A stretch of 64,000 bases of DNA from NCBI GenBank assembly GCA_965205165.1, contig OZ242037.1, positions 2,443,455 to 2,507,454 on the forward strand, written 5' to 3'. The stretch comes from Dehalococcoidia bacterium. Lineage in GTDB: Bacteria > Chloroflexota > Dehalococcoidia > Bin125. The notes beneath the pieces were generated by a model. It was not told the origin of the DNA, made no database searches, and worked only from the letters and a program-made list of their open reading frames with translations. The translations under genes were made by a program, and so were the position numbers. This document shows, one piece after another, positions 47,600 through 60,095 of the stretch (its first letter is position 1; each line of letters starts with the position of its first letter).

Positions 47600-49489
47600 C
47601 TAGTGCCCGCAATGCTCCGGCATCGGCACGTCCAGCGCCGGATTGCGGTCGAAGAACCCCCACGGCTTCATCTTGAAGCCCGCCCGCTGCACCGGCATCA
47701 CCGGCCAATCCTCCGGCCGCGCGACATGGTGCATCCCCACCGTGTACCAGAGCACCACGTCCGCATCCCGCAGGTTCCGCCCCGCCGCCGTCCACCTCGG
47801 CATCCCCTCGCCCGCCTCGCTCTGCGCCGGATAATCGCCGCCGGGATACCGCTCCGACGGATTATGCGCCGTCACCCACAGCTGCTTCCGCGCGAACGCC
47901 GCCCGCCGCGCCACCGACGACTCTCCGTCCGCCATCATCGCCACCGTCGCGCCCGGAATCAGCGCGTACGCCGGCGCTTCCCCCAGCCCGTTCCGCGCCC
48001 CGTCGTTGGCGATCCGCCAATGCCGCGCCGACGCCGCGTTGACCTCCCGCCCGCTTTCCGATTCGTCCGCGATCTCCCTCGCCCGCGACGTGAAAGCGTT
48101 CCCATGCGGATTCTCCGGCCCCCGCGGCAGCGGAACCGCATCCACCTCGTAGACCGTGTTCGCATCGCCGTCCACCGCCATGTCCAGCCGGAACGTGAGG
48201 AAGTGCTGGTGGATCGCGCCCGCCAGCCCCGGCCCGATCTTGTGCCGCGTCACCTCCGGCTCGTCCTCCGCGACCGCCATCGTTTGCACGATCCCCGTCG
48301 CCTTCACCTCGTGCTCCCAGCTCCCGTCCTGGTAGAAGTACCAGTAGAACCCGTAGTCGTAGTTGTCCACCGTCGCAACCGACGAAACGACCAGCCGCCG
48401 CGACCGCCGAACCCACGATCGCGGCTCGCCCGTCTCCTCGTCCCGGTACGTGTGCTTCCAGAGGATCCCGTGATCCTCCTCGTGGATGCAGATCGCGTTC
48501 TTGATCGTCTCCGCCCCGCCCCGCTCGTCCGTGATCACCCCGTCCATGTACGCGATCTCGCCCAAGCAGTCGCAGCCCAACTCCAGCGAGTTCGTCATCC
48601 GCCCCAAACCGCACTCGCCCGAATCGAACGCGTTCTTGAAGTACTGCCCGACGCTCGGATCCCCGTACGGCACCACCATCTCCGCCACCGACGCCCGCTC
48701 GCAGATGCGCCGCAAACGCCCCCCATCCTCGTACCCGATCTCGTGCAGCACCAGCCCCTCGCGCGGGTGCAGCGACACCCGCATCTGCCACTTCTGCCAG
48801 CGCAGCAGATGCCCCTCCAGCGTGAACGACGGCCCCTCCGCCTGCACGATCTCCAGCGGCTTCAAGTCCGTCCGCGCCGGCCCGCCGCAGTCGTGGTCGA
48901 ACCGCAGCGCCTCCCGCGGCGGCGGCGGATTCGGATGATCCTCCACCTCCAGCACCAGCCCGCCGATCAGATCGACGATCGCGACCAGCCCCTCCACCGG
49001 CCGCCCGTAGTAGCCGTCGTCGTCCGCCCCGTCCCGCAGGTACGCCAGCCCCTTCAAAATCCGGTGCTCCCTCTCCCACCTCGAGCCGAAGTTGCCGACC
49101 GGCCAGAGGTGCAGGAACGCCGAATCGATCTGCGCCTCGTCGAACCCCCGCGCCGCCATCGCCGCCCGCCAGCCCGCATCGGCCCGGATCCCCGCCTCCG
49201 CCCGCGCGTACTCCTCCCGCAGCGCGTACGGCTGCACCCCCGGCAGCCCGATCGCCGAAACCGCTTCCCCCGCATCGAGATCGACCACCACCTCCGCGGT
49301 ATCCCCCGAGATCGCATCGAAGCAGACCGCCTCCGCCAGCCGCGCCGGCGCTTCCGCCCCCTTGGGCGGATCCAGCGCAGCGATCAGCGGGAACCGCAGC
49401 GACAATCGTCTGCCCAAGCGCACCCCCGCGATCGCCGCCGTCCGCTCGATCTCCGCGGCCGACAGCGGGTCCAGCGGATGCGCCGTCAT
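47600..49489 (-). CDS. copper-containing primary-amine oxidase (TPQ cofactor)
   Basis: TPQ consensus TVDNYDYGFYWYF, His copper ligands, RASVAEMVVPYGDPS; colinear with Arthrobacter-type amine oxidases; start taken at MTAHPLDPL (49489), no signal peptide. Confidence 0.9.
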   Translation of the reverse strand: MTAHPLDPLSAAEIERTAAIAGVRLGRRLSLRFPLIAALDPPKGAEAPARLAEAVCFDAISGDTAEVVVDLDAGEAVSAIGLPGVQPYALREEYARAEAGIRADAGWRAAMAARGFDEAQIDSAFLHLWPVGNFGSRWEREHRILKGLAYLRDGADDDGYYGRPVEGLVAIVDLIGGLVLEVEDHPNPPPPREALRFDHDCGGPARTDLKPLEIVQAEGPSFTLEGHLLRWQKWQMRVSLHPREGLVLHEIGYEDGGRLRRICERASVAEMVVPYGDPSVGQYFKNAFDSGECGLGRMTNSLELGCDCLGEIAYMDGVITDERGGAETIKNAICIHEEDHGILWKHTYRDEETGEPRSWVRRSRRLVVSSVATVDNYDYGFYWYFYQDGSWEHEVKATGIVQTMAVAEDEPEVTRHKIGPGLAGAIHQHFLTFRLDMAVDGDANTVYEVDAVPLPRGPENPHGNAFTSRAREIADESESGREVNAASARHWRIANDGARNGLGEAPAYALIPGATVAMMADGESSVARRAAFARKQLWVTAHNPSERYPGGDYPAQSEAGEGMPRWTAAGRNLRDADVVLWYTVGMHHVARPEDWPVMPVQRAGFKMKPWGFFDRNPALDVPMPEHCGH

Positions 49490-49505
49490 CTCCAGCCCGG
49501 CCCGC

Positions 49506-51527
49506 TCAGCCGCGCCCGTTGCTCGACGCGCCGCCATGCCCATCCTCCTCTTCGTGCTCGTGCGCACAGTGCTCCGGCATCGGCACGTCCAGCCCCGGGT
49601 TGCGGTCGAAGAAGCCCCACGGCTTCATCGTGAACCCCGCCCGGTGCACCGGCGCCACCGGCCAATCCTCCGGCGTCGCCACGTGGTTCATCCCGACCGT
49701 GTACCACAGCACCACGTCCGCGTCCGTCAGCGGACGCCCCTGCGCCACCCACTTCGGCATCCCCTCGCCGCCATCGCTCTGATTCGGGTAGTCCCCCGCC
49801 GGATACCGCTCCGACGGGTCGTGCGCGGTCACCCAGAGCAGCCGGCGCGCGAACCGCGCCCGCTGCCCCACCGCCGAATCCTCCGCCGCCATCATGTCCA
49901 CCGTCTCCCCCGGCATCAGCGCGTACGCCGGCGGATTGCCCAGCGGATTGGCCGTCCCGTCGTTCGAGATCCGCCAGTGCCGCGCCGACGGCGAATGCAC
50001 CGACCTCCCGCTCTCCGCCTCGCTCGCGATCGCGACCGCCCGCGACGTGAAGGCGTTCCCGCGCGGATTCTCCGGCCCCCGCGGCAGCGGAACCGCGTCC
50101 ACCTCGTAGACCGTGTTCCGGCCGCCGTCCACCGCCATGTCCAGCCGGAAGCTGAAGAAGTGCTGGTGGATCGGCCCCGCCAGGTTCGGCGCCACCTTGT
50201 GCCGCGTGATCTGCGGATCATCGTCCGCGATCGCCGCCGTCTGGATGATCCCCGTCGCCTTCACCTCGTGTTCCCAGCTCCCGTCCTGGTAGAAGTACCA
50301 GTAGAAGCCGTAGTCGTAGTTGCCCACCGTCGCGATCGCCGACACCACCAGCCGCCGCGACCGCCGCACCCAGGACTCCGGCGCGCCCGTCTCCGGGTTC
50401 CGGTAGGTGTGCTTCCAGAGGATCCCGAAATCCTCCTCGTGGATGCAGATCGCGTTCTTGATCGTCCGCGCCCCTCCCCGCTCGTCCGTCACGACCCCGT
50501 CCATGTACGCGATCTCCCCCAGGCAGTCGCAGCCCAGCTCCAGCGAGTTGGTCAGCCGCCCCAGCCCCCCGACCTCGCCCGAATCGAACGCGTTCTTGAA
50601 GTACTGCGACGCGCCCGGATCCCCGTACGGAACCACCATCTCCGCCAGCGACGCCCGATGGCAGATCGACCGCAGCCGCGCCTCCGGCTTCCTCCCGTTC
50701 GGCGAATGCCCCGGCCCCGCCAGCGGGTCCGTCCCCGCATCGTCCCAGTACCCGATCTCGTGCAGCACCAGCCCCTCGCGCGGGTGCAGCGACACCCGCA
50801 TCTGCCACTTCTGCCAGCGCAGCAGGTGACCTTCCAGCGTGAACGACGGCCCCTCCGCCTGCACGATCTCCAGCGGCTTCACGTCCCCGCGCGGCGCGCC
50901 GCCGTGATCGTGGTCGAACCGCAGCGCCGTCTTCGGCGTCGGCCCGCCCGGCTCGTCGATGATCTCCAGCACCCGGTTCTCGACCAGGTCGACGATCGCC
51001 ACCAGCCCCTCGACAGGCCGCCCATAACCGTTGTCTTCCGGCTCGTCCCGCAGGTACGCGATCCCCTTCAGGATGCGGTGCCCCGTCTCCCACTCGCTGC
51101 CGAAGTTGCCGCCCGGCCACGGATCGATCTGGCACATCTCGAGCTCCGCCTCCGAAACGCCCCGCGCCCGCATCGCCGCACGCCAGCCCTCGTCCTCCCG
51201 GATCGCCGCCTCCGCCCGCCCGAACTCCTCCATCAGCGGAAACGCCTGCACGTCCGGCCGCGGCGTCGCCGACTCCACCACCCCCGCGTCCAAGTCGGCG
51301 ATCACTTCCGTCGCCAGACCCGTCGCCGTGTCCAGCACGATCAGCTCCGCCCGCCGCCGTGCGTCATCCGACCCCTTGGCCGGCTCCAGCCCCGCCACCA
51401 GCGGGAACCGCAGCGTCTCCGCGCCCCCCAGGTGCGCCGCTGCCAGCTCCGCCGCCCGCCCGATCTCCTCCCCCGAAAGTGGATCCAGCGGATGCACCCC
51501 CACCCGCTCCAGAGTCGCAGTCGCCAT
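49506..51527 (-). CDS. copper-containing primary-amine oxidase (TPQ cofactor), tandem paralog
   Basis: TVGNYDYGFYWYF TPQ motif, RASLAEMVVPYGDPG; GGAGG RBS upstream of ATG 51527; no signal peptide. Confidence 0.9.
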   Translation of the reverse strand: MATATLERVGVHPLDPLSGEEIGRAAELAAAHLGGAETLRFPLVAGLEPAKGSDDARRRAELIVLDTATGLATEVIADLDAGVVESATPRPDVQAFPLMEEFGRAEAAIREDEGWRAAMRARGVSEAELEMCQIDPWPGGNFGSEWETGHRILKGIAYLRDEPEDNGYGRPVEGLVAIVDLVENRVLEIIDEPGGPTPKTALRFDHDHGGAPRGDVKPLEIVQAEGPSFTLEGHLLRWQKWQMRVSLHPREGLVLHEIGYWDDAGTDPLAGPGHSPNGRKPEARLRSICHRASLAEMVVPYGDPGASQYFKNAFDSGEVGGLGRLTNSLELGCDCLGEIAYMDGVVTDERGGARTIKNAICIHEEDFGILWKHTYRNPETGAPESWVRRSRRLVVSAIATVGNYDYGFYWYFYQDGSWEHEVKATGIIQTAAIADDDPQITRHKVAPNLAGPIHQHFFSFRLDMAVDGGRNTVYEVDAVPLPRGPENPRGNAFTSRAVAIASEAESGRSVHSPSARHWRISNDGTANPLGNPPAYALMPGETVDMMAAEDSAVGQRARFARRLLWVTAHDPSERYPAGDYPNQSDGGEGMPKWVAQGRPLTDADVVLWYTVGMNHVATPEDWPVAPVHRAGFTMKPWGFFDRNPGLDVPMPEHCAHEHEEEDGHGGASSNGRG

Positions 51528-51615
51528 AACGCACCTCCTCGGGCCCGATCTCCCGCGAGCATAGCGATCCCTGCACCCCTAATCCCGCCCATACCAGCTG
51601 CGGACATCTCTCCGC

Positions 51616-51900
51616 CCCCGAACTGCCAAACAACTGCAACAGCTGCAAACCCGCCCATGGCAGTCCGAATCAGCGTCAAACGACGGCGTTCCCCCCGTTT
51701 CCGCCCTGTACTGCCAACCTGCTGTCAACGCTGCAAACCCTTCCGCGACAGCCCCGATCCGCGCCAGCGCCGGACCCCCGCCCCGTACTGCCAAACAACT
51801 GCAACAGCTGTAAAACCACCCTTGACACCTCGGCTTCCCAAGGAATTCCGCGCCCGAACCGCGCACCGGGCCCCTACTGCAACGCCAACTGTCAAACTCC
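51616..51900. repeat. four degenerate ~30-bp direct repeats (TACTGCCAA-n-CTGCAAC-n-CTGCAAACC type) in the promoter region of the amine-oxidase operon
   Basis: Copies at ~51622-51651, 51709-51740, 51786-51817 (near-identical to copy 1) and 51875-51900; each made of three CTGCAA-like heptamers spaced ~10 bp. Confidence 0.5.
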
Positions 51901-51917
51901 TGCCTCTCCCCCGCCCG

Positions 51918-53327
51918 TCAATTGCCGAGCGTCCAGTACGCCCGCGGATCATTGCGGCTGCCGCCCACCCGCCGCGCCAGCTCCGCCTCGGCCAGCCGGG
52001 TCAGGTGCCGCAGCGCCGTCGGCCGCGAGACCCCCTCCAGCGCCGCCGCCTCCGCCGTCCCCAGCCGCCCCGCCCGCTTCAGGTGCTCGTACACCCGCTG
52101 CGTCGCCGCCGGCAGCTCGGCCAGCCGCCTCAGCTCGGGCGCCGGCGCGCGCAGCGTGATCTTGACCCCGCCCGCCGTCTGCCGGATCTCCGGCGGCGGG
52201 CGCCGGTTCGACTCCATCACCTCCGCCATCCGCCGCAGCCCCTCGCCCACGTCCTGCCCGTACCGCAGCTGCCCCATCACCCGCGCGATCCGCGGGTTCC
52301 GCGCCGCCCGCCGCACGTTCGCCAAGTCCCGCGGCGGCGGCCCGCTCGCGAACCGGCCCGGACTCGACACCTCGATCCGGTCGTCGAAGATCTGCACCCG
52401 GACGTGATCCCCGAAATCGCTGTACGCCCGGTGCAGCACCGCGTTCACCAGCGCTTCCATCCACGCCGCGTCCGGCACGATCGGAAACCAGTCGAAGCGC
52501 CCGTCCGCCCCAAGCTGCCGCCACTTCGGCAGCTGCTCCCGGATGAAGCCCGCCGCCTCGTCGATCTGCCGCGGCAGCGGCCCTTGGCAGTAGCGGTCCG
52601 CCCGCAAATTCTGATCCTCCCCCGTCCGCGCCTCCTTCCCCTCGTAGCGCAGCGTCCGCACCAGCGCCTGCGGAAACGCCCGCTGCGGATTCACCCCGAA
52701 CAGCAGCGCTCCCGCCGTCAGCAGCTGCCCGTCGCCGCCCACCAGCGGCATCGCGTTCAGCACCCGCCCGGGATCCGGATGCCCTATCTGCTCCGCGTAC
52801 GACGCCAGCGCCCCCTCGTCCAGCTCGATCTCCGATCCCGCCGGCACCGGCCGCAGCTCGAACGCGATCTCCCCCCGCTCGTACTCCAGCAGCAGCCGCT
52901 CGTCGAATGTCAGCTTGTGGTTCGAGTCGCCCACCCGCGCGAACACCTCGTCCTTGCGGTTCGCATGCACCCGGTCCCCCGGCGGCACCTCGATCACGAA
53001 CACGTGATCGGCATCGCCCGCCCGGTTGACGCAGTCCAGCAGCGAAGCCTCGTAGGGCACCGGCGGAACCGTGAACTGCACCCCCGCCCGCCGCCAGTCG
53101 TTCTGGACCCGCTCCTTCGAATCGACCCCCTCGCACTCGCCCCCGCTCAGCCCGATCACCAGCACCCCGCCGTCCGCGTTGGCCAGCGCCACCAGCGGAT
53201 TCGCCAACTCCCGCGCCTTGATCCGCGCCGACTTGCGGTCGTACCACTGCCCCTCCGGCTCTCCCAGCAGCACCCGCGTCACCTCATCGGGCGGCATCAA
53301 CCTCAGGCGTTCGACCGGCGGCAGCAT
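51918..53327 (-). CDS. Schlafen-like AlbA_2 (divergent AAA) / HATPase_c_4 / C-terminal wHTH protein (putative DNA-binding regulator, RecG-C-like)
   Basis: N-terminal AlbA_2-like block (PLVALANADGGVLVIGL), central HATPase_c_4 block (NAVLHRAYSDFGDHVRVQIFDDRIEVSSPG...RNPRIARVM), C-terminal HTH (VYEHLKRAGRLGTAEAAALEGVSRPTALRHLTRL); start at ATG 53327 (track ORF begins at TTG 53351). Confidence 0.78.
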   Translation of the reverse strand: MLPPVERLRLMPPDEVTRVLLGEPEGQWYDRKSARIKARELANPLVALANADGGVLVIGLSGGECEGVDSKERVQNDWRRAGVQFTVPPVPYEASLLDCVNRAGDADHVFVIEVPPGDRVHANRKDEVFARVGDSNHKLTFDERLLLEYERGEIAFELRPVPAGSEIELDEGALASYAEQIGHPDPGRVLNAMPLVGGDGQLLTAGALLFGVNPQRAFPQALVRTLRYEGKEARTGEDQNLRADRYCQGPLPRQIDEAAGFIREQLPKWRQLGADGRFDWFPIVPDAAWMEALVNAVLHRAYSDFGDHVRVQIFDDRIEVSSPGRFASGPPPRDLANVRRAARNPRIARVMGQLRYGQDVGEGLRRMAEVMESNRRPPPEIRQTAGGVKITLRAPAPELRRLAELPAATQRVYEHLKRAGRLGTAEAAALEGVSRPTALRHLTRLAEAELARRVGGSRNDPRAYWTLGN

Positions 53328-53342
53328 CGTTCCAGTGTAATC

Positions 53343-53443
53343 TACTGCCAAATTGTTGCACTACACCTCACGCAGTCTCCGCCTCTGAACCGGCACCGAT
53401 GAAGCGCAACTGCAACAAGCTGCCAAATTGTTGCACCTCAGCT
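53343..53443. repeat. two further copies of the CTGCCAA..TTGCAC repeat immediately upstream of the AlbA_2/HATPase_c_4 gene
   Basis: CTGCCAAATTGTTGCAC at 53346-53362 (16-34 bp upstream of the ATG) and again at 53420-53436, the second preceded by AACTGCAACAAG. Confidence 0.45.
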
Positions 53444-53477
53444 GATTCCGAACGTGAACCGTCGCGACCGCTGCCGC

Positions 53478-53520
53478 GGAAAAGGTGAACGGGGCGCGGG
53501 CGATCCGCCCGCGCCCCGTT
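53478..53520 (-). terminator. intrinsic terminator candidate: perfect 15-bp GC-rich hairpin followed (minus strand) by CTTTTCC
   Basis: AACGGGGCGCGGGCG-atc-CGCCCGCGCCCCGTT (53488-53520) located ~30 nt downstream of thiolase stop on minus strand; T-tract 53480-53483 on minus strand. Confidence 0.55.
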
Positions 53521-53550
53521 CCTCGGTGCGCTCTTGCGCCGGCGGCGCCG

Positions 53551-54855
53551 CTAGACGGCTTCGAGGATGGTGCTGATCCCCATCCCCGCGCCGATGCACT
53601 GCGTCGCCAGCCCGTACTTGCTGCCGCTCCGCTGCAGCTCGCGGGCCACCGTCGTGACCAGCCGCGTCCCCGTCGCGCCCAGCGGGTGCCCGATCGCCAA
53701 GCTGCCGCCGTTCACGTTCACCGCGTCCGGGTTCAGCCCGATCTCCTGCACGCTCGGGATCACCTGCGCCGCGAACGCCTCGTTGAACTCGATCCGGTCG
53801 ATCTCGCCCGCTTCCACGCCCGCGTGCGCCAGCGCCTTCCGCGTCGCCGGCACCGGGCCCAGCCCCATGATCTGCGGCTTCACGCCGCCGACCCCGAAGC
53901 CGATCAGCCGCGCCAGCGGCTCCAAGCCCAGCTCCGCCGCCTTCCGCTCGCTCATCAGCAGCGCCGCCGTGAACCCGTCGTTCGTCGGGCAGCTGTTGCC
54001 CGCCGTGATCCGGATCTCCTCCTGCTGGTGGCTCACCGTCCCGCGGACCGTCCGCAGCCCGCTCAGCCCCTCGAAGTTCGTCCCCGGCCGGAAGCCCTCG
54101 TCGACGTCCACCACCTTCTTCTCGCCCCGCTCCTCCAGCAGCAGGTTGCCCTCGTCGTCGAACACCGGCAGCTCGACCTCGACCGGCACGATCTCGTCCT
54201 TGTAGAATCCCGCCGCCGTCGCCGCGCCGTACTTGCGGTGGCTCTCCACCGCGAACTCGTCCAGCGTCTCGCGGCTCAGGTCGTACATCTCCGCCACGTT
54301 CTGCGCCGTTTGCAGCATCGAGCAGACCGGCGACGAATCCAGGATCGCGTCCGGGATCGGCACCGAGAAGTCCAGCCCGTGGTCGTGCGCCAAGTTGCGC
54401 TGCTGCTCCGTCATCTCGTGCCGCTTCGAGTTGAACTCGGTGATCCGGTTCGGCTCCGCGCCGCCCCCGCCGCCGAGCTGCCGCCCCATCCGCTCCACGC
54501 CCAGCGCGATCCCCACGTCGATCGCCCCGACCATCACCTCCTGCGCCACCCGGTGCAGCGTCTCCATCGACGACCCGCACTGCCGGTTCGAGTCGAACGT
54601 GCAGACCGACTCCGGCAGCCCCGCCAGCCGTGCGATGTGGTTCGCGCCGATCCCCGCCAGCTCGGCCACGCCGCCGACGCAGCCCATGCCCACGTCCTCG
54701 ATCATCTCCGGCTTCACCTCGGGGTTCCGGTTCAGCAGCGCCTGCAGCACCTGCACCCCCACGTCGTCGAGCCGGGTCGCGGTGAACGCCCCCCGCCCTC
54801 CGCGCGTGAAGGCCGAGCGCGCACCGTCCACGATCACCACATTCTGGAGTTCCAT
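53551..54855 (-). CDS. acetyl-CoA C-acyltransferase (thiolase)
   Basis: Thiolase active-site Cys context (NRQCGSSMETL), C-terminal His/Cys motifs (NVNGGSLAIGHPLGATG; CIGAGMG). Confidence 0.9.
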   Translation of the reverse strand: MELQNVVIVDGARSAFTRGGRGAFTATRLDDVGVQVLQALLNRNPEVKPEMIEDVGMGCVGGVAELAGIGANHIARLAGLPESVCTFDSNRQCGSSMETLHRVAQEVMVGAIDVGIALGVERMGRQLGGGGGAEPNRITEFNSKRHEMTEQQRNLAHDHGLDFSVPIPDAILDSSPVCSMLQTAQNVAEMYDLSRETLDEFAVESHRKYGAATAAGFYKDEIVPVEVELPVFDDEGNLLLEERGEKKVVDVDEGFRPGTNFEGLSGLRTVRGTVSHQQEEIRITAGNSCPTNDGFTAALLMSERKAAELGLEPLARLIGFGVGGVKPQIMGLGPVPATRKALAHAGVEAGEIDRIEFNEAFAAQVIPSVQEIGLNPDAVNVNGGSLAIGHPLGATGTRLVTTVARELQRSGSKYGLATQCIGAGMGISTILEAV

Positions 54856-58848: not shown

Positions 58849-58958
58849 GACAGCCCTCCGTTCCTTCCGCAGTCTAGGGACTGCTCAGCCGCTCCTGGGC
58901 CAAGCGCTGGACTCCACGCCGGCCGGCGCTTACCTTGCCGCAGCGGAAGGGGGCGGCA

Positions 58959-60095
58959 ATGGGCGGGAAGGCGCTAATCAGGCGGGCCGCGGGGCTGCTG
59001 GCCGCGGGCGTGTTGTTCGCCGCAGCGGCGACGGGCGTCTCCGCGGATGGAGGGGATGAAGAGGCCGCGGCTGAGGCCGCCCTGCAGCCGACGCAGGTGG
59101 TGGCGGAGATCCCCGACGGATACGGCGATCTCTTCCCGCTGGAATGGGGAGGAGGATCCCTCTTGCACCTCAAAGGACGACTCGCGACAATGGGTTGCAT
59201 TGCAGACACCATATGGGTGTACGACAACAATCAATGGCATCCATACAATCAATACCAAGTGCCTCACACGCTTGACATAATTCAAAGCTTCAAAAATCAA
59301 TACTCAGATTACATCCCTCCCACAACCATATATGCAGATTGCACAAACATCTGCGAATTCAACAACAACCGATGCATTCCTTTTCACGAGATGAGGGAAC
59401 AAAACAACAACTATGAAAACAGCTCTTTATTTATTGTTCCTCTCTCAGAAAACGACTCCTGCACCAGAAACTTCAACCCCAAAGTAACCACCCAAGTTCT
59501 CCCAACTCTTCCCGCCAGACCAGATGCCTGCATCGTAACCAAACAACGCATAAGCGGAAGAGGAATCAGAGGCGTTGCTCCCGGTCTTCCCGTTAACACA
59601 AATCCCTTTTTTGTGGTCTACGACGAATCCACCGCGTATCGCACCCCAACTGAACACTCAGACATTCTTCTTACAAGCGAAATCCACGAACTGTGTCACA
59701 TCAACCAAAATTGGCACTGGGTTCAACAACTCACGCACAATGCGTCCATCCAATACAAACCTCTTACTTACTTCTACGCCTCCCCCCACGGACAAACCTT
59801 CATACATATGGTAGGATACCAACGCAACAACGGCGGAACCTGGCTTCTTCCTCAAAACAGCGTGTACCGAGATATTTACTCAAAAGAACCAACTGAACTT
59901 GCGGCAGAACTCTGTTCAATGTATTTACTGGACAGAATGGGAGAACGAAGTAATTATGATTATGAAAAGTATAATTATGATGGAGTATATTATGAAGAAA
60001 TCCCTATTCGCAATACCAACCTCAGCAAATACCTCACCCCAGACATAACAGAATGGCTTGAAACCCATATGATCCTGCCGGAGATCGCCGATTAG
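58959..60095 (+). CDS. secreted Cys/Asn-rich protein with HExxH(x5)H zincin-like motif; C-terminal ~300 aa encoded by AT-rich foreign-looking DNA
   Basis: ATG 58959 after GGAAGGGGG RBS; signal peptide MGGKALIRRAAGLLAAGVLFAAAATGVSA; HELCHINQNWH at nt 59685-59717; ≥8 Cys; the listed ORF begins at TTG 58935. Confidence 0.72.
   Translation: MGGKALIRRAAGLLAAGVLFAAAATGVSADGGDEEAAAEAALQPTQVVAEIPDGYGDLFPLEWGGGSLLHLKGRLATMGCIADTIWVYDNNQWHPYNQYQVPHTLDIIQSFKNQYSDYIPPTTIYADCTNICEFNNNRCIPFHEMREQNNNYENSSLFIVPLSENDSCTRNFNPKVTTQVLPTLPARPDACIVTKQRISGRGIRGVAPGLPVNTNPFFVVYDESTAYRTPTEHSDILLTSEIHELCHINQNWHWVQQLTHNASIQYKPLTYFYASPHGQTFIHMVGYQRNNGGTWLLPQNSVYRDIYSKEPTELAAELCSMYLLDRMGERSNYDYEKYNYDGVYYEEIPIRNTNLSKYLTPDITEWLETHMILPEIAD
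59170..60075. other. compositionally anomalous AT-rich segment (~40% GC vs ~70% flanks) lying entirely inside one ORF and in frame at both junctions
   Basis: Sampled 60-nt stretches gave ~35% and ~45% GC by manual count; codon usage switches to AAT/AAA/TAT-rich; sharp transitions at ~59165 and ~60075. Confidence 0.8.

Follow-up and report, generated by a model that had tools for sequence, protein, structure and literature searches.

An autoregulated winged-helix factor with its operators is an ordinary kind of system. Here, we consider a candidate from a 64,000-nucleotide (nt) stretch of the genome of a Dehalococcoidia bacterium (contig OZ242037.1; this whole stretch is called the window below). 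In it, a gene for a 469–amino acid (aa) AlbA_2/HATPase_c_4 protein with a C-terminal winged helix-turn-helix (wHTH), hereafter the regulator, is flanked on both sides by clusters of a short half-site, TTGCAG and its variants. Comparison with related loci suggests that these repeats are probably the cognate sites of the regulator’s wHTH, serving autorepression in front of the gene and forming an auxiliary array behind it, the whole being one cassette.

Among described systems, the MarR/ArsR-type autorepressors share with this locus the C-terminal wHTH fold and a palindrome of ~21 base pairs (bp) over their own −35/−10 region. The locus differs from them in that the wHTH forms the C-terminal end of a 469-aa protein with a Schlafen-like and a GHKL-like ATP-binding part, in the extra arrays of multiple half-sites behind the gene, and in the direct orientation of the half-sites in the window arrays. 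A gene for a DNA-binding protein followed by a tandem array of sites is known from F-plasmid SopB/sopC and P1 ParB/parS, where the operon is autoregulated and sopC consists of 12 repeats of 43 bp. The regulator gene is likewise directly followed by a tandem array of site-bearing units; unlike in SopB/sopC, no ParA/SopA partner ATPase is found nearby, the locus is chromosomal, its GC skew is flat, and the units are 77 to 110 bp with three to four half-sites each.

Reiterated short sites are also read by the Omega repressor of pSM19035, a ribbon-helix-helix protein that binds contiguous 7-bp heptads, direct or inverted, cooperatively at several promoters. The half-sites described here are similarly short and vary in orientation and number, but they lie one helical turn apart, whereas Omega heptads are contiguous, and the protein is of the wHTH type. 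OmpR/PhoB and SARP regulators bind direct 6- to 7-bp repeats with a 10- to 11-bp period, much as the window units are direct hexamer and heptamer repeats 9 to 11 bp apart on one helix face; the regulator, however, has no receiver or BTAD domain, and the ancestral site of its family is a palindrome. Finally, in phage immunity regions such as that of mycobacteriophage L5, with its “stoperators,” repressor and operators are exchanged as a module, and some sites lie at gene ends. The regulator and its sites are also exchanged between similar genomes, and homologues reside in the immunity/integration region of actinophages; in contrast to the phage systems, the homologue is not the annotated immunity repressor, which is a separate gene, and the sites are confined to the flanks of their own gene.

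Little guidance comes from closer relatives. DIP2311 of Corynebacterium diphtheriae (3LMM), which belongs to the same domain family, was deposited as an uncharacterized protein. Photorhabdus TrlG, which has both AlbA_2 and HATPase_c_4 domains, is the sole studied bacterial protein of this kind found in the searchable literature; the accessible part of the preprint presents it as a growth-restriction determinant and describes no DNA site (10.1101/2020.06.02.129163). Searches of that literature with motif strings, COG2865, and domain names found no DNA site or regulatory architecture described for the family and no defined DNA target or function for AlbA_2/HATPase_c_4 proteins. Three features of the present locus look new: an operator specific to the family, tandem arrays that lie behind the gene, and the joint exchange of gene, operator, and array.

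RESULTS

Half-site clusters in the window are confined to the flanks of the regulator gene

The regulator gene (51918 to 53327, minus strand; domains assigned by Pfam) starts with the ATG at 53327, as set by P0001, a 469-aa protein on record that is 99% identical. A 390-bp spacer separates it from the first gene of a copper amine oxidase (CuAO) operon. We found six TTGCAG/TTGGCAG/TTGACAG clusters, confined within the 64 kb to the two intergenic regions flanking the regulator gene. They are the six motif copies that an earlier note on this DNA, made from the sequence alone, had listed as occurring nowhere else in the window; all were recovered at their positions, and there were no others. Every copy reads CTGCAA on the plus strand, that is, TTGCAG in the gene direction. 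The start-to-start distance of half-sites is 8 to 13 bp, mostly 9 to 11, in agreement with the ~10-bp spacing given in the note. When same-strand pairs of TTGCAG, TTGGCAG, TTGACAG, TTACAG, or TTGCAC with a gap of 1 to 7 nt were counted on both strands, eight pairs were found in the two intergenic regions and none elsewhere.

The 17-mer CTGCCAAATTGTTGCAC is present in exactly two exact copies, at 53345 and 53420, and has no other match in the 64 kb at up to three mismatches (0.05 expected by chance). The first of these lies 18 to 34 nt upstream of the ATG, so the described closeness of one copy to the start codon was confirmed, as was the near-identity of the first and third copies: single-mismatch matches to the 29-mer TACTGCCAAACAACTGCAACAGCTGCAAA occur at 51621 and 51786 (0.00 expected). 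All four occurrences of TGCCAAA in the 64 kb, and four of the five occurrences of ACTGCCAA, fall in the two intergenic regions. A repeat search returned copies at 51616, 51704, and 51781, spaced by 88 and 77 (family D1), and a second, two-copy family (D5) ending in a common TACTGC at 51786 and 51875, which places a fourth copy ~89 bp further on. Tandem Repeats Finder did not detect this ~85-bp array, the units of which are too diverged, but detected the 90- to 110-bp arrays of relatives.

The two copies upstream of the gene differ in kind. The proximal one, a candidate primary operator, is a 21-bp imperfect palindrome, TAGTGCAACA-A-TTTGGCAGTA (53343 to 53363, minus strand), with 7 of 10 positions symmetric. 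The distal one, unit 0 (GTGCAAC-AAT-TTGGCAG-CTTG-TTGCAG; 53410 to 53437, minus strand), lies 83 to 110 nt before the start codon and consists of one inverted and two direct half-sites, an arrangement (− + +) that other lineages also use in their 3′ units. Downstream of the gene, each unit comprises three direct half-sites read in the gene direction. These units, all on the minus strand, are U1 (TTGACAG-N6-TTGCAG, type A with a degenerate first half-site; 51877 to 51895); U2 (TTACAG-N3-TTGCAG-N4-TTGGCAG, type B; 51788 to 51813), which contains the exact operator 10-mer TTTGGCAGTA; U3 (TTGCAG-N2-TTGACAG-N4-TTGGCAG; 51711 to 51736); and U4 (TTGCAG-N3-TTGCAG-N4-TTGGCAG; 51623 to 51648), which is near-identical to U2. 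In general form, type A is (TTGCAG)-N2-TTGACAG-N6-TTGCAG and type B is TT(G/A)CAG-N3-TTGCAG-N4-TTGGCAG. The units are spaced by 77 to 89 bp and are 70 to 87% alike.

Two metagenome contigs are syntenic with the window, L001 (regulator protein 99% identical) and L002 (87%). Both keep the half-sites while the spacers diverge, and the number of units goes from four to five: L002 has five, with types A and B alternating and a ~180-bp duplication. L001 retains the primary operator, and L002 has a variant of it. In an alignment of eleven units from the window, L002, and a third locus, L007, the conserved columns are three CAG-centered half-sites (consensus TTgCAG-ct-TT..CAGTtGgT....GCAGTtcGGGg), and the spacers diverge except for two short type-specific blocks.

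A palindrome of the same kind lies on the promoters of homologous genes

The comparison covered 86 homologous loci (Dehalococcoidia, Latescibacterota, Actinomycetota, and temperate actinophages). Scanning a single genome for each species gave 80 loci, most of them in Dehalococcoidia and the others in Latescibacterota, Acidimicrobiia, Solirubrobacterales, and further groups; their proteins are 44 to 58% identical to the window regulator. Five more metagenome loci came from exact look-ups. No exact match to the window proteins themselves was on record, and a metagenome scan for close relatives returned only homologues of at most 51% identity and no further window-type arrays. Downstream genes of relatives were confirmed by Pfam or by called genes and not by the longest open reading frame (ORF), given the shadow ORFs that arise at high GC.

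When these homologous genes were checked for the motif, the same kind of site was found on the promoter across the 86 homologues. Most loci have a palindrome, typically TACTCTAAA-N3-TTTAGAGTA (21 bp), whose end lies a few bases short of the start codon, and the window palindrome has the same length and position. The half-site varies by lineage (TTTCAAGTA, TTTATAGTA, TTTACAGTA, and TTGAGAGTA; TTTGGCAGTA in the window). In 56 of the 86 loci, exactly 6 nt separate a TAnnnT hexamer from the start codon, and in 70 the distance is 5 to 8 nt; a Shine-Dalgarno–like sequence was seen in just 4. The position of the hexamer and the rarity of Shine-Dalgarno–like sequences suggest leaderless transcripts, with the operator covering the −10 element, the spacer, and the −35 element. 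Autorepressed genes typically have an operator placed in this way. In the window, the −10–like hexamer TACACT (53334 to 53339, minus strand) precedes the ATG by 6 nt, the operator spans about −16 to −36 of the promoter, and the regulator mRNA would be leaderless, starting at 53327; a simple sigma-70 scan gave no match at this promoter.

Full-length homologues (40 to 41% identity) are encoded by temperate actinophages, among them Mycobacterium phage Squirty (gene 31; region 3926 to 6688 of L095) and Gordonia phages such as Nymphadora (gene 38; region 3956 to 5386 of L096). They lie between lysis or tail genes on one side and the integrase and immunity repressor on the other; in Squirty, the neighbors are gene 29, annotated as RelA/SpoT-like, and gene 30, a hypothetical gene. 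Squirty gene 31 is preceded by TACTGTAAA-AGG-TTTACAGTA and then 5 nt before a GTG start codon, and Nymphadora gene 38 by TACTCTAAA-ATT-TTGAGAGTA, with more half-sites further upstream. The label “DNA helicase” or “RecG-like” that phage records give to the homologue is probably wrong.

Half-site classes appear to follow the predicted recognition helix of the C-terminal wHTH

Pfam recognizes AlbA_2 at the N terminus of the regulator, followed by HATPase_c_4, and gives subthreshold HTH_20 and DIP2311-like_C matches at the wHTH; there is no NCBIfam family for the protein. The AlphaFold model (469 aa, pLDDT 87) has three parts. According to Foldseek, the N-terminal domain resembles the Schlafen cores of SLFN5, 11, 12, 13, and 14, and the C-terminal winged helix (residues ~395 to 469) resembles MarR/ArsR/CadC structures; the middle domain is the GHKL-like, ATP-binding HATPase_c_4. 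DIP2311 (3LMM) was both the best overall fold match and the sole PDB sequence match.

Half-sites of the TTT(C/T)A(A/T)GTA type go with the predicted recognition helix P(V/T)(A/V)(Q/R)REL in eight of eight loci, and TTT(G/C)CAGTA half-sites go with PHALKVL in two of two; the AG and AT half-site classes are found mostly with PxxLRxL-type helices. In part, this association reflects clade structure. A natural control for the link between wHTH and sites is offered by three homologues that lack the wHTH (L034, L035, and L037; ~393 aa): their genes have the −10–like hexamer but neither the palindrome nor a 3′ cluster. On balance, it appears very likely that the sites belong to the AlbA_2/HATPase_c_4/wHTH protein.

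One Dehalococcoidia metagenome-assembled genome (contig CBDESM010000003.1) carries three paralogues, L007, L036, and L042, with different flanking sites: TGACAGTAG, a long palindrome of the GACTAGAGTG type, and CTGGAAAAC. This suggests that the paralogue sites may have diverged in specificity, avoiding cross-talk.

Site clusters behind the gene occur irrespective of the downstream gene

To describe the distribution of sites, we used the degenerate pattern T[TC]NN[GC]AGT[AT]. This pattern, which was derived from a subset of the same loci in which it was then counted, with little contribution from distant loci L041 to L086, occurs at 8.3/kb in the 80 nt before the start codon and 5.2/kb in the 400 nt after the stop codon versus 0.3/kb within the gene and across the remainder of the loci. 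Counts were compared with those in shuffles that preserve dinucleotide content. In the close loci (window and L001 to L040), 19 matches were observed in the upstream 80 nt against 2.3 ± 1.4 expected, and 123 in the downstream 400 nt against 11.6 ± 3.5. The corresponding values for the distant loci were 40 against 3.2 ± 1.8 and 54 against 8.2 ± 2.8. Inside the gene, L001 and L002 have one match each. In the window gene, one exact half-site lies at 52584 to 52592; it reads TACTGCCAA along the gene strand and is thus TTGGCAGTA in reverse complement. One such 9-mer per 64 kb is within chance.

Half-site clusters starting no more than 150 nt after the stop codon were present in 28 of 86 loci, a count that leaves out the window’s own lineage, whose half-sites the strict pattern undercounts. 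No clusters were found inside the gene (0 of 86), and 6 of 83 loci had one in the kilobase further upstream. A common 3′ unit consists of one or two inverted half-sites, 5 to 6 nt, and two direct half-sites one helical turn apart. In Dehalococcoidia, these clusters have grown to tandem arrays of up to 7.5 × 90 bp (L025, 94% identity between units; L031, 4.3 × 104 bp; L008, 2.5 × 110 bp). Copy number differs even between near-identical alleles: L021 and L023 have 3.5 and 5.6 copies at 98.5% protein identity, and another such pair has 4.4 and 7.5.

The gene that follows is surE (then yebC and ruvC/ruvA) in ~17 loci, the CuAO operon in five (window, L001, L002, L006, and L007), and a convergent pfkB kinase gene or a thiamine pyrophosphate enzyme gene in others. 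In L014, L019, L029, L030, and L048, the units are located between the 3′ ends of two genes, 5 to 60 nt past the stop codon; therefore, the basic 3′ cluster cannot be a promoter element of the next gene.

Arrays of at least three units were seen only where the next gene is co-directional, that is, surE or CuAO. In L005, L008, L011, L013, L016, and L017, the last unit overlaps the predicted leaderless surE promoter. In the window, U4 ends 60 nt before the putative −10 element of the CuAO operon (TATGCT; 51558 to 51563, minus strand), which is part of the block GATCGCTATGCT, conserved in L001, L002, L006, and L007 and followed by GGAGGTG and the ATG at 51527. In addition, the GCCGCTGATCG-like blocks in type B spacers resemble the block GCTGATCGCTATCCT of the CuAO promoter, suggesting that operator and promoter were duplicated together. 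All of this would fit an array that is chiefly an upstream regulatory region of CuAO, through which the regulator would activate or repress amine catabolism, and that only incidentally lies behind the regulator gene. We regard this explanation as unlikely, because there is no promoter available to the clusters that face a convergent gene, because the downstream gene changes between clades while the array stays with the regulator, and because divergence of the array goes along with that of the regulator and not with that of the CuAO genes (see below).

The block shared by type B spacers reads GCCGTC-N-TTTG(A/C)CGCTGAT(C/T)(C/G)G, contains GATC, and is akin to GCTGATCGCTATCCT. It is found at 51650 to 51710 in the window (U3 spacer), at ~2580 to 2625 and ~2755 to 2800 in L002, and at ~5745 to 5790 in L007, and it may be a decayed promoter copy or the site of a second factor.

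Operator, gene, and array diverge as one block

Between genomes with 91 to 98% identical flanks, the block composed of operator, gene, and array is only 55 to 72% identical; this was observed in four independent groups. Between the window and L006/L007, identity is 87 to 91% for flank DNA, 69 to 70% for gene DNA, and ~58% for the protein. Between L002 and L006/L007, flank DNA is 89 to 97% and gene DNA 68 to 69% identical. L003 and the three alleles L031/L033/L032 show 92 to 96% identity in flank DNA, 66 to 70% in gene DNA, and 56 to 59% in the protein; for L008 and L017, the values are 95 to 98%, 67%, and 61%. Identity profiles drop sharply 100 to 220 nt before the start codon and recover 220 to 350 nt after the stop codon. 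In the window, the hypervariable cassette thus comprises unit 0, the operator, the gene, and the 3′ array and extends over ~51570 to 53480 on the minus strand, from the thiolase terminator to the CuAO core promoter, and nearly coincides with the interval first flagged; windowed identity to L007 is 90 to 97% outside this block and 11 to 79% inside.

Breakpoints vary: L003 and L031 retain the array although their genes are 56% identical, and the L007 array is a hybrid of L006-type palindromic and window-type direct units. At the pfkB locus, alleles with (L019 and L048) and without the wHTH (L034, L035, and L037) share flanks. Among Latescibacterota and Solirubrobacterales, divergence of the gene does not exceed that of its flanks. 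Overall, the array stays with the gene in three contexts and diverges with it, which is the behavior of a cassette; judged by these comparisons, regulator and sites appear to be one exchangeable unit at a fixed locus.

Hypervariability with sharp boundaries in four independent groups could also mark a conflict or defense module, in which a Schlafen-like ATP-binding protein is kept bound to its own site arrays and diversified through its interaction with phage or mobile-element factors, any regulation of adjacent genes being of secondary importance. Several observations agree with this. The pfkB locus is occupied by alleles of both kinds, those that have the wHTH and those that lack it, the phage homologues occupy the integrase/immunity region (with Squirty gene 31 next to genes 29 and 30), and the predicted N-terminal domain matches Schlafen nuclease cores. 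PADLOC reports a partial match to positions 65 to 440 of the 1121-position pAgo model, a Schlafen-type region. TrlG is described in the accessible part of its preprint as restricting growth (10.1101/2020.06.02.129163). However, apart from the pAgo match, PADLOC gave weak Aga and CARF matches and no whole-protein match to any defense-system model, the chromosomal neighbors are housekeeping or catabolic genes, and the Latescibacterota and Solirubrobacterales genes differ no more than their surroundings. We consider a defense module improbable, somewhat more so than the CuAO-centered explanation, even though a conflict or defense role is the most interesting reading of the hypervariable cassette.

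Repeats without sequence-specific function and other unlikely candidates

Tandem units at 77- to 89-bp spacing and copy numbers that vary between near-identical alleles (3.5 versus 5.6; 4.4 versus 7.5) might be expected of a decaying minisatellite, and the earlier note had itself allowed for the remnant of a small repeat element. A minisatellite or dispersed element without sequence-specific function is very improbable: across the window, L002, and L007 units, the half-sites are conserved and the spacers diverge, the same half-site builds the promoter palindrome, and further copies are absent from the 64 kb and nearly absent from the rest of the ±4 kb around the 86 loci. The array could, in turn, act as RNA, namely, as a small RNA, a 3′-untranslated region (3′-UTR) structure, or a processed repeat transcript, since the units lie in a would-be 3′ UTR and in several lineages are long palindromes able to fold as hairpins (an 18-bp perfect stem in L019). 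This is the least credible of the alternatives, given that the window array is all direct repeats and folds no better than shuffles (z = −1.5 and −0.3 for the two strands), that Rfam yields no match bar a chance one to DnaX on the thiolase terminator, that half-site orientation varies between lineages with spacing kept, which fits protein-DNA recognition, and that the same sequence stands upstream of a leaderless start, where transcription is not expected.

Further candidates were rejected. A sigma-54 promoter (TGGCAC-N5-TTGCW) would need another order and spacing (TTGCAG precedes TTGGCAG on the gene strand), and the −24 GG is not conserved in L002. Reading the motif as a sigma-70 promoter fares no better, as the simple scan gave no such match. 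Replication origin iterons or Ter sites do not fit a GC skew that stays flat, nor was a gene of the rep, dnaA, or tus-like kind seen among the nine neighbors scanned. For a partition centromere, an adjacent ParA-type gene is missing, the neighbors being genes for thiolase, CuAO, aminotransferase, S58 peptidase, surE, and pfkB. A REP/RAYT-like dispersed repeat would have copies outside the two intergenic regions, and none exist in the 64 kb. A CRISPR array is excluded by units only 70 to 87% alike, spacers that are themselves repeated, and the lack of cas genes among the nine neighbors scanned. The ORFs over the window array are typical high-GC artifacts, and a 28-codon leaderless ORF in the L019 array is not conserved in L014 or L048.

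Surroundings of the cassette

The G+C content of the region is ~70%, and the genes around the regulator are all on the minus strand. Gene annotations of the earlier note were checked and found correct; the nine neighboring genes were scanned with Pfam. First in transcription order is a thiolase gene (53551 to 54855, minus strand), upstream of the regulator. It is followed by a perfect 16-bp inverted repeat (53487 to 53521), the likely thiolase terminator, which is outside the motif system and marks its upstream boundary; the repeat is kept in L002, L006, and L007. The Rfam match to DnaX mentioned above is spurious (19.8 bits against a 35-bit threshold). Behind the regulator lie the two CuAO genes (49506 to 51527, starting with the ATG at 51527, and 47600 to 49567, a 655-aa ORF; both on the minus strand), then a class III aminotransferase gene, and then a periplasmic binding protein gene. 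In L001 (3820 to 5756), the second oxidase is represented by two ORFs of 313 and 332 aa in place of the single 655-aa ORF of the window, which could reflect a frameshift, a pseudogene, or an assembly error.

The ORFs annotated between 45 and 59 kb are mostly on the minus strand. GC skew is negative throughout the window (1 to 64000; about −0.2, ranging from ~−0.1 to −0.27), without a strand-composition switch. An ORF on the plus strand (58935 to 60095) combines a G+C-rich, signal peptide–like N-terminal part with a body of much lower G+C content, especially at 59150 to 60095, and holds an A+T-rich tandem repeat at 59959 to 59996; it looks horizontally acquired. In the surE context (L003, 1 to 13437; L005), polA and fpg lie upstream and ruvC, ruvA, and uvrB downstream of the regulator homologue, and Photorhabdus trlG also adjoins polA. 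These DNA-repair neighbors may have come about by chance or may point to a connection with DNA damage.

DISCUSSION

The explanation we favor is that the repeats are recognized by the regulator itself. The wHTH would read half-sites of the TTG(N)CAGT type. Bound to the 21-bp palindrome at 53343 to 53363, over the −35 element and spacer of a leaderless promoter, the regulator would repress its own gene; we consider such repression likely. Unit 0, ~60 bp upstream of the operator, would be an auxiliary site with three half-sites. The four 3′ units would have arisen by tandem duplication, and the multi-half-site units in general may be auxiliary, high-avidity sites for an oligomeric and probably ATP-controlled form of the regulator, raising local occupancy through cooperative binding or through looping across the 1.4-kb gene.

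The 3′ units would at the same time form the upstream region of the CuAO promoter and so couple the oxidase operon to the regulator; the end of the array 60 nt before the CuAO −10 element makes such coupling probable on grounds of position. Control of this operon by the regulator is plausible; relatives with surE have a last unit that overlaps the predicted leaderless promoter of that gene. Judged as a whole, an influence of the 3′ array on the CuAO operon is tentative and somewhat less likely than not.

This outcome agrees in part with the earlier note, which had proposed the HTH protein as the reader of the repeats, both for autoregulation and for control of the amine oxidase operon. The assignment of the sites to the wHTH protein and the autoregulation are strongly supported by comparison, namely, by the 86 homologues, the apparent tracking of the recognition helix, and the controls without a wHTH. 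The view of the array as a feature of the oxidase promoter does not hold: the array follows the regulator whatever lies downstream, including between convergent genes, and diverges with it. The idea of a repeat-element remnant is likewise not supported, given conserved half-sites between diverging spacers and the near absence of copies off the loci.

Several observations weigh against the favored explanation. The half-sites of the window units are repeated in direct orientation, but those of the family operator are arranged as a palindrome. Since no symmetric dimer could read both kinds of site alike, a flexible linker or a higher oligomer would be needed. Three helix classes match three half-site classes, though the classes are also clades. 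The helix SRPTALRHL is identical in the window and L021 while the half-sites differ (TTGGCAGTA versus TTGAGAGTA); specificity must therefore lie elsewhere, too. L006 and L007 have 3′ units but no recognizable 5′ operator, and the L031 array is closer to the L003 operator than to that of L031 itself. The degenerate pattern used for counting shares its source with the loci counted. Last, with the nearest unit 60 nt from the CuAO −10 element, any effect on the oxidase operon would not be simple occlusion.

A bolder proposal extends to the whole family. COG2865-type proteins, which combine the Schlafen-like AlbA_2 domain, a GHKL-like ATPase, and a wHTH, might form self-contained, hypervariable cassettes of gene and flanking operator array on the chromosomes of bacteria and in temperate phages, with the 3′ array as a loading or sequestration platform. 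The platform would hold an ATP-controlled, potentially nucleolytic effector on its own locus until released by a signal such as infection, DNA damage, or a metabolite, and the involvement of the protein in a genetic conflict would cause the cassettes to be swapped between genomes in the manner of phage immunity regions. We think this proposal unlikely, about as unlikely as an array devoted chiefly to CuAO.

Proteins with AlbA_2 and HATPase_c_4 domains abound in bacteria, archaea, and phages and are usually misannotated as “RecG-like helicase” or “ATP-binding protein.” For their wHTH-bearing branch, the present analysis supplies a testable DNA site, TACTCTAAA-N3-TTTAGAGTA with its lineage variants, and a promoter architecture that is predicted to be leaderless and overlapped by the operator. 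It also reveals an unusual cis-architecture, tandem site arrays that lie behind the gene and are exchanged together with it. Should conflict lie behind the hypervariability, these proteins would be the bacterial equivalent of antiviral Schlafens, equipped with a DNA anchor of their own. Otherwise, the cassette would still be a portable, self-matched unit of regulator and operator that places surE-ruv or amine oxidases under one ATP-binding sensor.

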